51,815 nt of DNA, taken from IMG/VR virus record IMGVR_UViG_2563366933_000008. One strand, written 5' to 3'. Below are positions 3,001-9,000 of the stretch, piece by piece. Every line of letters starts with the position of its first letter. Position 1 is the stretch's first letter. Made by a program: the position numbers. Source of the stretch: a virus. Its lineage: Duplodnaviria > Heunggongvirae > Uroviricota > Caudoviricetes.

Positions 3001-6000
3001 GCAACATTAGAGTTAATATTTTCTTGTTGAGTTAATTCGTTCATTGTGTCCTTCCTCAGATGCTCAGTGCTTCAAGACGACGAAGATCAAAGTCGTTTAA
3101 TTCGTCGGTATAACTTTCGGTAATCGGTGCTGGCCAGTTGTTTGTCTCCAGGGCTTCGTTTATCTGGCGTAGCGTCCGGCGATATTCCTGTCGACCAAGT
3201 TCCAGGAGTTCCTGCGAGGCTTCCACGACTGCCACCCAGTGATAGCCAGCATCTTTGTTGACGAAGATCCAGAAAAATTTGTCCAGATTTGCCACATCGC
3301 AATACATTGCTGCGCTGAGGTGATAATCACGCTCAATAATTTCACGGTGCAGGCGATCTTTCAGTCGTTCCTGTCGCACATAACCGAGGCTGACTGACTT
3401 CACGTCGGCGCAAATGCTTTCGTATGGCAGCCGGATTTCGATATCAGGACGGACCCTGATTTCCAGCCCGGTTTCTTCATCAAACCCGAAATAGCTGATT
3501 TCAGATTTGCGATCCGGGTGGTTGAGTAGCCTTGCTGCATCAGTATTGTTTTGCAGTGCAGCGTGAATATTTTTTGCCTGTTCATACATATCTGAACTGA
3601 TAAACGTTTTCCCGGCGTTTTCTTCTTGCTGGCGTTTTTGCCAGTCCTCCAGGGTAACCAGTTCCGGGCGGATTTTCCGAGCGATTTCGGTTAATTGCTC
3701 TTTCGTGCCACTGATGTTGTAAGGCAAAGATTTAGCACGTTCTTTTTTCGCCAGTTCTGGATCTACAGTTTCAATTTGCTCCAGAAGTTGCTCCCGTGTT
3801 CCACTGGTTTTCAACAGAGGAGGGAGGTTTGCATTGTATTCTCTAATGCAGGCTTTCATTGCCGATGCAGTATGTTTCTCCTCCTCCGGAATACGCCGGA
3901 ATTCCACCGGAAGCGAACCGTAAAGGATGCCTGTTTCTTCGGCTCCAGCACTTACAGACAGTGGCTGTATAAGAGTGCTGTTGTAGCTTTCGATCCACTC
4001 TTTCATCTGCTCTGGTGTCATCAGTGCTGGCAGACTGGCATTGTGTTTTTTAATGATGGCGATCAGTTCGCTAGAAGTAGTAACCACATATTCAGGAACT
4101 GGTACCGGAATGGCATATTCATCAGCGAATTTATCCGTTTCCAGAACATAGCTGTGAATGATCCGCCCACGCAGCAGTGCATCACTTTCCTCGTTCGGAA
4201 TAGTTCCGGCAATGTGCCGTCCGTGGTAATACATCAGGCTGATACGGGCATCCTTCAGCATCGTGCTGCTTATTCCGTTGGCGGAGTGATAAACCTCGTT
4301 CGGGAGGTTTTCATAGCGGCCAGGCTCGAAATATGACGGCCACATGATTTCAGTTGCTACAGGAGCTGACGCTTCACCAGTTTCATCACTGCAATCACGA
4401 TGCGGATCGCTGCCAGCATTCTCATTGTGCGGATGTTCAGCGCCTTCCATTTCCACCGGATCTTTTTCCTTAGCTTCAACCTGATTCTCTTCATCGAATG
4501 TTTCCTGGTATGTTGCGTCGCCCGTCACCGCCCCACAGTCAGGGCAGTTATCTCCGCCAGTCTGACCGCAGGCATTGCAGACTATTTCCGGTTCCTGTTG
4601 CACTACTGGCTCAGGTTGTTTCACATCCGGGCTGGTTTTTTCCGTTTCTGGCTGGTTCTGGTACACAGAATCGCGAGTCTGGATCCCCTTAACCCATTTC
4701 GGATCGTTCGGGTCGCTAATTCCGTCAACAAATTCACCACGTGATGCAGCAAGCAATTTATCGGCATCGACAGGATTTTTTGATGGAATGTTTTTCCGGG
4801 CTTCATGGAGTTCTGCCCGCAGTTCCTGATATTTCGCATCAACAGAATTTACCTGTGACTGAGCATCCAGCGGCTGCGTGTCCTGATGATGTTTAGTTGC
4901 GTCCGGTTCCATTGTTTCAGCCTCTCCCTGTTCATCTGCCGTTGTTCCAGATGGTTGCGGTTTTTCTTCATCATCCTGTTTTCCTTCTTCTGTTACTCGC
5001 TGCGGCATCGGGGCAGAGGAGCGACCGCAGGCAATATCCACGATTTCCGGATCAGGGTTGGCATGATCGGTTTCAGTCAGTACTTTGTTCAGATATTCAG
5101 TGACGTGCGCGGGGGTGACCTCGATCCCAATTGGTGCTTCTTTTACGGACGCAACCACGATGGCGCGGGAATAATCCAGCCCGCCAGGCATGGTGATGAA
5201 TTTGTCGCGGAAAACAGAAAAGGGCGGTTTATTTTCAGCGATAATTTCCTCAATGCGTTTAGCGTGTGCCGGATGAAGGTTATAGATGTCCACGTCCATT
5301 GAACGGGCCAGTACGCCAGTGGCTACGTCGCGCGCCAGTGACGTAAGATCGTGGACGAAACCTTCGCCGCGATCGGTGAGGTTCCCGCCGCCAGCATTAG
5401 CACCGGAAGCCGTGCGAGTGATGCGTGAAACACGATTACCCTTCATCCACTCTTTTGTCAGCAGTCCTCGATCGGTGTAGTCAGCGTTCAGGTATGCTTC
5501 GAAAAAAGCAGTTAACAGTCCCAAGTCTGAATTACCAGGATTAGGGAAAACTTTGTCAGTGTCACGAACCAGTTTGTGGAGATCGCGAATTTCCAGCGGG
5601 TCGAGCAGGCTGGTTTTGTGGGAAACAGCCAGGGCAGTAACAGCCGGTAGTTCTTCAGCCCGTGCAATGTGTAATGCCTGGAGTTCGCCGCGTGAAACGT
5701 GCGTTACCGGTTTTTCGCTGCCGTGTTGAGCAAGCCAACGAATGGGCAGTTCCTGGCCAGAAATTGGGAGTAGCATATTCTCCTCAATCTCAGTCATGTC
5801 TTCGCCGTTGACGTTGGTATTGCCTTGATAGTGAGCGTTGTCTGGTGCTGCTCCCGGTTTTAGTTCCCATGTCATGGAGTCTTTGCTGAGTTGATAGCGT
5901 TCACTCCAGGTAAAATCGATCTCACCTTCAGCGGGCAGGTCATTAACGACAGGAAAATTCGTGGCAACAGCTTTAAAATAGCTGCTCAGTTTTTTACCTG

Positions 6001-9000
6001 ACTTAACGATCAGGTAGTCCAGAGTGGCACAGGTCGATTCAAAATCGTCACTTGCCCACAGGACGACGTCAGGTTCACCGGATGATTTTTTCGCTTTCCG
6101 TAACAGGAAGAGTGGTTTTGTGCTCATTGTTTTTTAACCTCAACTCAGATTAAAATTCGTTTTGTTCAGTGAATGATCTTGCCGGATACACACTGTTCAT
6201 AGCCTGCGCCATACGCAGGCTATTTCTTTCAGATTTCACCTTTTAATTTCATTGCAATCAGAGTTGCCAGAAATCCGGCTTTTTTTTTCTGCGGGCAGAT
6301 TCTTTCCGATATGCACCAGGCTCATTTTTTTGACACCTTCGTGAAGTGTTTTAACGTTGCCTGATGGACCGTCGATATCAACTACAGTGAATGGGGTTTC
6401 TTTATTTTCTGTTTTAATCACGTAGCCAATACGCTTTCCTTCCAGATTAACTTCGTGAACAATGTCATCAGTAGTTACAACAGTGGCTTCATAACTGGTA
6501 ATCATGTTTTTCTCCTTAATTAAGGTTGAGCGAATCCCTGCCATTGCTGGCATAAATTCAGTTTCGCATAGTCAGTTAATTAAAGTTCGTGTGCCATCTG
6601 GTCTTTTTCGGCACATATTTCACTACAATATTTTTTCATTTCCGTCGTTGGGATAACTCCACGCATGAAATGAAGTGGTCTTTTAATGCTTTTGCTTTCT
6701 TTAACTTCTTTATCGCAAAGGTGGTAAGCACATTTTATTTTCTTAGTCATCACCATGACTCCGCCTTTACAGGTAAACCATCACGACCGAGGAAGACTTT
6801 AATCATGCAGTCAGTAATGCATGTTTTTGTGGTCAGGTTACGAATATAAAGCTTTCGCTTTTTAATATTGTTTGCCGAGGCAATATATGTCCGGCCGTTA
6901 TGAAGAACATAATCACCAGGAGTCACACACTGACGAGGTATTTCATCAGTTCCGAAGTGATGAGCAATCATAATTATCTCCATTTTCACAAATGAACTTT
7001 GTTGATGCGGTGCCTGGTGCCTCCAGGTGACGTTAACCAGTTAACAATTAACGCCGGATAATCCACCCATAACACTGATGCTTTTAACTGTTCCGCGTGC
7101 GCTTAGCCGCATTCACCGCATCACAAAATTCACTTTAAAAAGGGCGGACATCAGCCGAACTTCAAGAAAAAACTGATGCCGCCAAGACTACACACAGCAA
7201 TGTCGTTATTTACAACCGGAGGCGCACTCCCACCATTTAAATTTAACAGACAAGACCGACTCTTTATGGATATCGGAAATGCGCCTTCGTGTTGCGCCCA
7301 GTTTTATTTCACCACCTCCGGGCTTCGGTGGTCTCGGCTATACCCCTACAGCGAGAGCTTGTGTTAACATTTCAATACCCTTACAGTTGAGAGTTATTGA
7401 TATGTTGGATGTATTTACTCCATTGTTGAAACTTTTTGCTAACGAGCCACATCGAAAGACTTATGTATACGATTATCATTTTTGGTCTCACTCTCTGGCT
7501 GATACCGAAAGAGTTTACTGTCGCATTCAATGCTTATACTGAAATACCTTGGCTCTTTCAGATTATCGTTTTTGCCTTTTCTTTCGTGGTCGCCATTTCC
7601 TTCTCAAGATTGCGAGCACATATTCAAAAGCATTATTCATTACTACCAGAGCAACGAGTATTGCTTCGTTTATCTGAGAAAGAAATCGCTGTATTTAAAG
7701 ATTTCCTTAAAACAGGAAATCTTATTATCACTTCTCCTTGCCGTAACCCGGTTATGAAAAAATTAGAACGGAAGGGCATCATTCAACATCAGAGTGATAG
7801 CGCAAACTGTTCTTATTATCTCGTCACCGAAAAATACTCCCATTTTATGAAGTTATTCTGGAACAGCAGGAGTAGACGTTTTAATCGTTAGCTTACTGTG
7901 TGCTTCTCCAACCATCGGCGCGCACCAGTTTCGGTTTTAAATGTTTTGCTTTTGGTATAAGTCATGGCGGTGAACGTTCCATCCTGGTTGGGGAACACGC
8001 CGCACACCATGGATTCGTTATTGCCGAGGTCGATTTTTTGCATTTTTCGCACCTCACATCTTGTTGTTGCGGATAGAGGCTTCTGCTTGCCAGAGATCCC
8101 AGTCGTTGCTACGTAAAGCCTGCACAGCCTGGCTGTAAGTGATACCGCAACAATCCATCAAATACTGAACTACTTCGTAATGCACCATCTTTTTTCCCCT
8201 TAACGCCGGGTGGCGGAACGTTTTATCTACTGCGCTTTGTATCAATCAACAACTGCCGTCATGTTCGTATGCCTCAGGCTGGCTACTTAGCCCTGTTCAG
8301 TGGCTGGATAACTCGAGGTATTGTCCTGCCGTTCTCCGGTGGGGCGTTGTTTGGATATGCTTATTAAACACAAAGGGTTTTTGTATGTCAACACAAAATG
8401 TGTTTTTATGGTGGCGTGTCATATGATGATGGTACAAAAAAAGCCCGCTGATAGCGGGCTGATTGGCATATTACTGTGATAGCAAGATCATTACTCCGGT
8501 GGGGGGGTATCTTTAAGCCTGCCCCTCAAATATTTTTCTACATACTCGTCGATTTCTTTTAGCCGGACTTCAAATAGCTCAATCATTCGTTGTTGTTCTG
8601 AGCCCGGTAGCTGGTTAAACAACTCAAGAAGTTTTCGTTGGGATTCATTTAACCACAATTCAGAAGAGTCTTTTTCCCCAAAGAGGAGCTCAGGAGGAGA
8701 TATGCCCAGCGCCTTTCCCAGGACGACAGCATCATGCACTCCAACATTTCTGCTGCCCGCCTCATAGTTACCTATACGCGATTGCGTCCATCCGCAGATT
8801 TCAGCAAGTTTTCCTTGAGATAAACCAAGCTTCTGCCTGCGCTCTTTAAGACGCATTGCAATTTTGTCATTGAGCCTACTAGCGGCAATTTTTTCGTTTT
8901 CTTTTTCCATTTCGTCCTTGTATCACGAATCGTGATTTATATAAAACACAAAATAGCTTGACCGCAAAACACAAGGTGTGTTTAAAATTGTCGTCGGAGG

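Follow-up and report, generated by a model that had tools for sequence, protein, structure and literature searches.

The closest described relatives of the locus analysed here are the RecE/RecT pair of the Rac prophage of Escherichia coli K-12, the recombination modules of the Salmonella prophages Gifsy-1 and Gifsy-2 and, at a greater distance, the Exo/Redβ pair of phage λ. Most recombineering relies on RecET and Red as its standard tools, and full-length RecE outperforms the truncated form in linear-linear recombination. Two points were left open in a structural review of 2023, namely the function of the N-terminal part of RecE, which it described as 'of unknown function', and whether RecT-like annealases bind their exonuclease through a C-terminal domain (CTD) (PMC11611040). 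The CTD of Redβ binds both λ Exo (PDB 6M9K) and the single-stranded DNA-binding protein (SSB), and annealase activity depends on the SSB of the host (PMC11611040). The recET orthologues of Gifsy-1 and Gifsy-2, once activated, suppress recombination defects in Salmonella (PMC3121763). A published class of such modules, with a nuclease and an annealing protein and without an anti-RecBCD gene, has 'Gifsy-1' as its prototype, and the 2025 survey of lambdoid recombination modules left the 'shuffling of partner interaction domains' unanalysed (PMC12315714). Here, a recE gene and the adjacent gene of its annealing protein (hereafter the partner) were analysed in the IMG/VR record IMGVR_UViG_2563366933_000008 (Caudoviricetes), a stretch of 51,815 nt which is referred to as a whole as the window. 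Judged from sequence comparison, the two genes probably form the recombination module, with exonuclease and annealase, of a full-length lambdoid prophage of Rac type adjoining ttcA in E. coli. The module is a hybrid, and the CTD of the partner would serve to dock it on the nuclease. Its parts are located as follows.

1983-4357 (2375 bp): cassette replaced with respect to K-12, as delimited by blastn
3056-6127, minus strand: recE, a hybrid exodeoxyribonuclease VIII of 1023 aa with ATG start (open reading frame [ORF]; NF007259; phrog_607)
5594-6124, minus strand: RecE N-terminal domain, aa 2-178 (Pfam PF06630 Exonuc_VIII, E 4.7e-96, 320.9 bits, cutoff 25)
4493-4765, minus strand: conserved central block in the acidic linker of RecE, aa ~455-545, which holds the Cys4 motif (homologue alignments)
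4532-4579, minus strand: Cys4 motif of 16 aa, aa 517-532, with two CxxCG knuckles, a putative zinc site (translation of window 4520-4600)
3056-4357, minus strand: Gifsy-type PD-(D/E)XK nuclease domain of RecE, aa 591-1023, with H658, D895, D908 and K910
3623-4042, minus strand: helical insertion of 140 aa in the nuclease domain, aa 696-835, inside a wider helical module of aa ~672-841 (MAFFT, AlphaFold2)
1992-3044, minus strand: partner, a predicted single-strand annealing protein of 350 aa with ATG start, Gifsy/HK225 subtype (ORF; phrog_561, E 5.1e-145)
2418-2957, minus strand: annealing domain of the partner, aa 30-209 (Pfam RecT PF03837, E 4.6e-43, 147.5 bits, cutoff 24)
1995-2399, minus strand: 'type-A' CTD of the partner, aa 216-350, a putative docking module, of which aa ~280-350 are best kept

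In a blastn comparison with K-12, the window was matched at 97.6% identity over positions 1-1982 and at 95.3% over positions 4358-8346, and positions 1983-4357 had no match at all. The match stops at 1982 and resumes at 4358, so that the replaced block comprises RecE aa ~591-1023 together with the entire partner gene. Its left edge lies 9 nt past the stop codon of the partner. At its right edge it comes to within a few residues of the point where the truncated 'E588' RecE begins, a form used in ET recombination and recombineering (PMC11257833). At the protein level, BLASTP revealed near-identity with K-12 RecE (866 aa) from residue 1 to ~590, a region spanning the PF06630 domain, the acidic linker and the Cys4 motif; the DNA encoding it is 97.7-98.0% identical to recE at the same locus in several E. 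coli genomes. The module is a hybrid of aa 1-~590 of the Rac K-12 RecE with a 2.4-kb cassette of Gifsy-1/HK225 type encoding the nuclease domain and the partner. In a preliminary description of this DNA, the two ORFs, which are 11 nt apart and both on the minus strand, had been recognised as a RecE-like exonuclease longer than that of K-12 and an annealing protein, and the module had been taken for a mosaic. All of this was borne out: RecE scored 1519.3 bits against NCBIfam NF007259 (cutoff 1269), and the difference in length is real (~157 aa). The extra residues are not in the central region; alignment with MAFFT placed them in the longer nuclease domain.

Of 5426 complete E. coli genomes, 193 contain the cassette, among them strains of O157:H7, O145 and enterotoxigenic (ETEC) E. 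coli, and it is 95-99% conserved in ~160 genomes. Among IMG/VR loci whose nuclease domain is at least 95% identical to that of the window (L011-L039), the identity of RecE ranges from 37 to 99% over aa 1-180 and from 51 to 99% over aa 181-400. Such variability points to several internal crossover points in recE, beyond the one at aa ~590. A segment of 4.1 kb including both genes has 100% DNA identity with E. coli strain N1420, in which the prophage adjoins ttcA, and RefSeq annotates the two products there as recE exodeoxyribonuclease VIII (WP_001526953.1) and 'RecT family recombinase' (WP_001526952.1). Both genes are correctly named in RefSeq, and the locus is an ordinary annotated allele. Of modest interest are two comparative results, namely that the annealase CTD co-varies with the nuclease type across two subfamilies of annealing domains, and that the Cys4 linker module is common to several kinds of prophage nucleases.

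The RecE nuclease fold was found in the C-terminal domain, which matched PF12684 (E 1.4e-13, 51.6 bits, cutoff 26) and showed a weak but specific sequence match to the K-12 RecE structure 3H4R (E 3.6e-6). Residues H658, D895, D908 and K910 align with H652, D748, D759 and K761 of K-12 and are invariant or nearly so among homologues; they represent the catalytic His and the D...(D/E)xK motif. His-652 of K-12 RecE is cited in the structural review (PMC11611040). RecE of coliphage HK225 (1129 aa) shares 51% identity with the nuclease domain over aa 594-1021, and RecE of Klebsiella phage 5 LV-2017 (1054 aa) could be aligned over the full length with 38% identity. Some close homologues are entered in databases as 'Gifsy-1 prophage RecE'. 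Since relatives of Gifsy/HK225 type are widespread, 'giant' RecE proteins of 1000-1130 aa with partners of 350-370 aa are a known and common type.

By its sequence, the partner is an annealing protein of the RecT/Redβ superfamily, and it would anneal single-stranded DNA as does its family. Its annealing domain matches the same PF03837 model as Redβ and K-12 RecT. No match was obtained, even at E ≤10, with NCBIfam TIGR00616 (rect)/NF007351 or TIGR01913 (bet_lambda), and BLASTP gave nothing convincing with K-12 RecT (E 0.36) or with Redβ (E 0.02 over 34 residues). A profile built from 36 sequences of the partner family was aligned by hhalign to Redβ over 141 columns with E 5e-4 and a probability of 31%, but not to K-12 RecT (E 0.44). 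As both the rect and the bet_lambda models failed and the profile aligned weakly to Redβ, the partner belongs to a third RecT/Redβ subgroup, marginally nearer to Redβ. The likeness to Redβ which the earlier description proposed holds only weakly, through this profile match and the shared Pfam family. The real relatives are the RecT proteins of the Gifsy/HK225 group, with identities of 49-54% over the full length for HK225, mEp237 and Klebsiella phage 5. With the full-length protein as query, 4699 clusters at 50% identity were retrieved at E ≤0.001; the majority of the matches listed span the annealing domain only. Searches against PDB chains, with the single sequence and with the family profile, gave no meaningful match. 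An Erf-type annealase was considered and rejected; PF03837 was the sole Pfam match, with neither Erf nor any other annealase family. Two homologues, in phage ST974-OXA48phi18.2 (H28) and in E. coli Eco_23-3571 (H68), are annotated as 'enterohemolysin', which looks like an old misnomer.

The co-variation of the CTD with the nuclease was followed from both sides. In a nuclease-led scan of a one-genome-per-species collection, 119 stretches encoded a relative of the nuclease domain and the best 80 loci were kept; they come from Enterobacter, Citrobacter, Kluyvera, Klebsiella, Serratia, Edwardsiella, Proteus, Pectobacterium, Erwinia and other genera. The 140-aa insertion is present in 80/80 of these loci and the type-A CTD in 77/77 evaluable ones, the other three being cut by a contig end (two) or having no partner ORF in sight (one). 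A window-type annealing domain with a type-A CTD follows the nuclease in 72 loci. In five loci the protein that follows has 387 aa and a RecT-type annealing domain (TIGR00616 E 5.5e-30; 31% identity to K-12 RecT, E 6e-27); the type-A CTD is all that it has in common with the partner of the window (39% over aa 232-314, E 1e-12). A natural Serratia example of this build is encoded at L126:6251-7414. A partner-led scan of IMG/VR, of which again the best 80 loci were kept, gave the type-A CTD in 80/80 and the insertion-bearing nuclease in 79/79 evaluable loci, one locus being cut by a contig end 245 nt upstream. As a baseline, only 12 of 150 representatives with a window-type annealing domain carry the type-A CTD. 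In phages Tyrion, TL-2011b and vB_YenM_29.18, an annealing domain 48-63% identical to that of the window is followed by a different CTD of ~90 aa (type B), and the exonuclease is a stand-alone, K-12-type protein of 273 aa; that of Tyrion has no insertion and shares 51% identity with the nuclease domain of K-12. Two contigs from non-enterobacterial assemblies, labelled Sphingomonas sp. NPDC019816 (L101, 42 kb) and Streptomyces sp. NPDC002677 (L163, 2.1 kb), encode an enterobacterial Gifsy-type RecE (52-53% identical) with a Serratia-like RecT-type partner and are probably contaminating contigs.

A replacement of the annealing domain was also seen among close relatives. In ten IMG/VR loci (L030-L039), the nuclease domain is at least 96% identical to that of the window, and the partner shows 88-90% identity over its last 80 residues, with only 61% in the annealing domain. 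When L035 was compared with the window in bins of 150 nt, DNA identity was at least 91%, and mostly 96-100%, across RecE as well as the genes that lie downstream of the partner (window 1-6150). It fell to 0-69% over partner aa ~15-265, with 85-87% in the bins at both edges of the patch, and stood at 99% over the last ~70 codons of the partner. In the order of the DNA, the annealing domain sits between the nuclease domain and the CTD. The middle has thus been exchanged while the outer pieces stay matched, for which plain linkage is no explanation. The CTD follows the type of the nuclease and not its own annealing domain, suggesting that it is a docking module. The most economical reading of these comparisons is that the annealase docks on its own exonuclease through the CTD, above all through the final ~70 residues, in the way in which Redβ uses its CTD on λ Exo.

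Several points weigh against this reading or against the explanation as a whole. The co-occurrence counts are not phylogenetically independent; the loci counted are related prophages. An hhalign comparison of the type-A CTD profile with the Redβ CTD detected no similarity (E 0.12). The tail of K-12 RecT is unlike the type-B CTD despite the K-12-type nuclease with which each is paired, and hence no simple rule of one CTD type for each nuclease type holds. In the AlphaFold2 model of the nuclease domain, the first 56 residues have a predicted local distance difference test (pLDDT) value below 50. The recET genes of K-12 are silent unless activated. Finally, the partner CTD could instead bind host SSB, as the Redβ CTD does besides binding λ Exo. 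Taken together with the relatedness of the loci and the deviating K-12 tail, this last point leads to the alternative that CTD and nuclease travel together by physical linkage and shared ancestry only, the CTD binding host SSB or mediating oligomerisation and not binding the exonuclease. Against it, the intervening annealing domain was replaced at least twice, in L030-L039 and in the five RecT-type loci, with the outer parts still matched, and types A and B both occur in phages of E. coli, which face the same host SSB. This alternative is held to be unlikely, and docking of the partner CTD on the nuclease is retained as the preferred explanation.

The insertion that accompanies the type-A CTD appeared as a single gap of 140 residues between K-12 residues 689 and 690 when RecE was aligned by MAFFT with K-12 RecE and three short phage exonucleases. 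The site falls within loops 665-698 of K-12 RecE, which are disordered and involved in DNA capture (PMC11611040). AlphaFold2 modelled the insertion as seven helices with pLDDT ~80-92. No match covering it was found by a fold search against PDB, and a Pfam search of insertion and linker at E ≤10 returned sub-threshold hits only (Ish1 E 0.053, SAP_new25 E 0.085, Stk19 and Zn_ribbon_3); membership of the insertion in the SAP, HeH or Ish1 families is not supported. A blastp self-comparison gave no significant internal repeat; recurring 'YNAxLP' and 'SGTKEQL' strings are visible. With less certainty than the CTD assignment, the insertion might either make the collar at the DNA entry wider or form the docking surface for the partner CTD.

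The linker between the N-terminal and nuclease domains had been described as acidic and rich in Pro and Gln, and aa 360-600 are indeed enriched (D+E 22.0%, P 9.1% and Q 7.5%, compared with 16.9%, 6.2% and 3.6% in the whole protein). The Cys4 motif that had been presented along with it, and interpreted as a potential zinc ribbon, is present and is arranged as CNACG-x7-CPDCG. K-12 RecE has the same motif at the same residues; the motif belongs to a long-studied protein and is not peculiar to this allele. The four Cys of the CxxC-x7-CxxC array are among only 10 in the 1023 aa of RecE and are conserved among homologues, so the motif is not due to chance. Among the listed matches to RecE aa 400-600, 109 of 120 homologues carry it in 27 variants, which differ at most non-Cys positions and always keep the four Cys; the Cys columns are invariant in alignments A2 and A3. 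Two of the other 11 cover the site with one Cys replaced, and for nine nothing indicates that the site is covered. RecE of HK225 and of Klebsiella phage 5 lacks the motif, as do the more distant IMG/VR relatives. The invariant columns of the central block in alignments A2/A3 read EFV.GISDP.D.KW.KG ... C..C....G.NCPDC; YQETF comes further on in the conserved block.

This central block precedes four different C-terminal parts in prophage proteins of E. coli and Shigella: a K-12-type nuclease, a Gifsy-type nuclease, a DnaQ-like 3'-5' exonuclease (PF16473) and a short non-nuclease tail. The last two have counterparts in the 'DnaQ-like' nucleases and the nuclease-less 'RecE-2' proteins described in lambdoid modules (PMC12315714). 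No discussion of the Cys4 motif was found in the literature on RecE. Knuckles of the CxxCG and CPxCG kinds are of rubredoxin style. Conservation of the Cys makes it plausible, at a lower level of inference, that the motif is a metal-binding knuckle in a disordered linker. The zinc-ribbon interpretation is favoured by this conservation and was not supported by modelling. No zinc-ribbon model passed in a Pfam search of the linker at E ≤10, the hit to Zn_ribbon_3 (E 0.69) being far under the cutoff, and AlphaFold2 modelling of aa 400-600 from a 19-sequence alignment gave a mean pLDDT of 51, with ~50 and only a short β-bridge around the motif. With confidence this low, the model is useless for judging a zinc ribbon. 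The sole confident element of the central model is a helix of 24 residues (aa ~422-445, window ~4793-4864, minus strand; pLDDT ~80), which precedes the conserved GEFV…KWVKG block.

Judged by its homology with the K-12 protein, RecE of the window would form a ring and act on double-stranded DNA as a 5'->3' exonuclease, leaving a single strand as 3' tail. The partner, by homology to its family, would coat this tail and anneal it to complementary DNA. Docking of the partner onto the Gifsy-type nuclease through its CTD would explain the joint movement of the nuclease domain and the partner, and the Cys4 motif might form a little zinc knuckle within an N-terminal/linker module that is portable. These elements can be combined in a tentative proposal, which as a whole falls short of being probable. 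First, the annealase CTD, possibly touching the 140-aa insertion, would be the determinant of specificity between annealase and exonuclease and exchangeable between RecT-type and window-type annealing domains. Second, the Cys4-bearing N-terminal/linker part of RecE would be a portable adaptor that has been fused to at least four C-terminal parts (two PD-(D/E)XK types, a DnaQ-like 3'-5' exonuclease and a non-nuclease tail). If true, a portable adaptor would entail a targeting or regulatory role common to these proteins, whatever the chemistry of the nuclease. The locus and its relatives represent natural domain swaps that make CTD-exonuclease binding testable, and they offer a hint for the design of matched exonuclease/annealase pairs, namely to keep the nuclease domain together with the C-terminal tail of the annealase.

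Profile and sequence comparison identified the surrounding genes as the Rac prophage set, in the order of K-12. The following features flank the module, and beyond recE the racC-like ORF is accompanied by ydaE and kilR.

1-1236: intR, then xisR
1553-1813, minus strand: DUF1187 (rcbA-like) ORF
1557-1735, plus strand: complete RalA antitoxin small RNA (Rfam RF02694, 215 bits)
1734-1943, minus strand: ralR ORF (NF007260, E 2.5e-48)
6236-6553, minus strand: racC-like ORF (166.5 bits against NF007306, slightly below the cutoff of 171)

The RalA small RNA lies opposite the DUF1187 ORF and adjoins ralR, overlapping both minus-strand ORFs (1553-1813 and 1734-1943). Immediately downstream of the recombination genes lies an intact type I toxin-antitoxin pair, RalR/RalA. 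Over window positions 9000-33999, the deposited E. coli phage vB_EcoS-683R6 gave a coverage of 88% at 96.8% identity, including terminase, coat and other structural genes. The full set of structural genes downstream indicates a full-length lambdoid prophage and not a remnant such as the 23-kb one of K-12. The same region holds as apparent cargo a gene for a Trk potassium-uptake protein and one for an NAD+--asparagine ADP-ribosyltransferase.

The pair might also be seen as the remains of a module that is decaying and no longer functional in a cryptic prophage, as is much of Rac in K-12. The racC-like gene and sieB (sieB region ~7400-7900) are both flagged as frameshifted in the RefSeq annotation of the N1420 locus, and E. 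coli E300010 (L006, NZ_CM128601.1) harbours a deletion derivative at the ttcA site, reduced to the final 603 nt of the annealase gene (99.3% identical) and a fragment of recE from its N-terminal part, both annotated as pseudogenes. Both ORFs of the window are intact with their catalytic residues kept, however, and the conservation of the cassette across genomes, the structural genes of the window with their match in a deposited phage and the presence of the same partner (99.7% identity) in a deposited phage genome of 47.5 kb all speak against decay, which is considered very improbable. This last genome (L003, PP818812.1) is named 'Actinobacillus phage vB_Apl-pPE4', from A. pleuropneumoniae; it has an E. 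coli Rac-type left arm, with 96% DNA identity across window 1504-5473, and its host attribution looks doubtful.

A novel giant RecE, with the acidic linker and a Cys4 zinc ribbon as new features and with a mosaic pairing to a Redβ-like rather than RecT-like annealase, is highly unlikely: the ORFs and the motif do exist and the partner does lack BLAST similarity to K-12 RecT (E 0.36) with a family profile that aligns weakly to Redβ (E 5e-4), but linker and motif are the same in K-12 RecE, the partner fails bet_lambda and is 49-54% identical to Gifsy/HK225 RecT proteins, and the claim of novelty is refuted by the K-12 identity, the RefSeq annotation of identical DNA as recE and RecT family recombinase and the position of the extra length in the nuclease domain.

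Compared with the Rac RecE/RecT of K-12 (PDB 3H4R), the window shares the prophage backbone, the ttcA site and the gene order int-xis-DUF1187-ralR-annealase-recE-racC-ydaE-kilR, as well as a near-identical RecE aa 1-~590 including the Cys4 motif, the nuclease fold and the catalytic residues. It differs in a nuclease domain that is only ~26-29% identical, bears the 140-aa helical insertion and has a different C-terminal tail, and in a partner that has no BLAST similarity to K-12 RecT, fails TIGR00616 and adds a CTD of 135 aa which K-12 RecT does not have. With Gifsy-1 and Gifsy-2 of Salmonella, the coliphages HK225 and mEp237 and Klebsiella phage 5 LV-2017, it has in common the insertion-bearing nuclease (51%), a full-length partner with the type-A CTD (49-54%) and the order of exonuclease gene followed by annealase gene, whereas the N-terminal and central parts of their RecE are 27-38% identical to those of the window and lack the Cys4 motif. 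The λ Exo/Redβ system follows the same two-component logic, and Redβ and the partner both belong to PF03837 with a weak profile match; λ Exo, however, is a trimer of a 226-aa protein without N-terminal extension, the window module has no gam-like anti-RecBCD gene, and its type-A CTD has no detectable similarity to the Redβ CTD. The DnaQ-like exonucleases (PF16473) and the 'RecE-2' proteins (PMC12315714) have the same central block and Cys4 motif in E. coli prophage proteins, but they carry another catalytic domain or none and are not encoded in the window.

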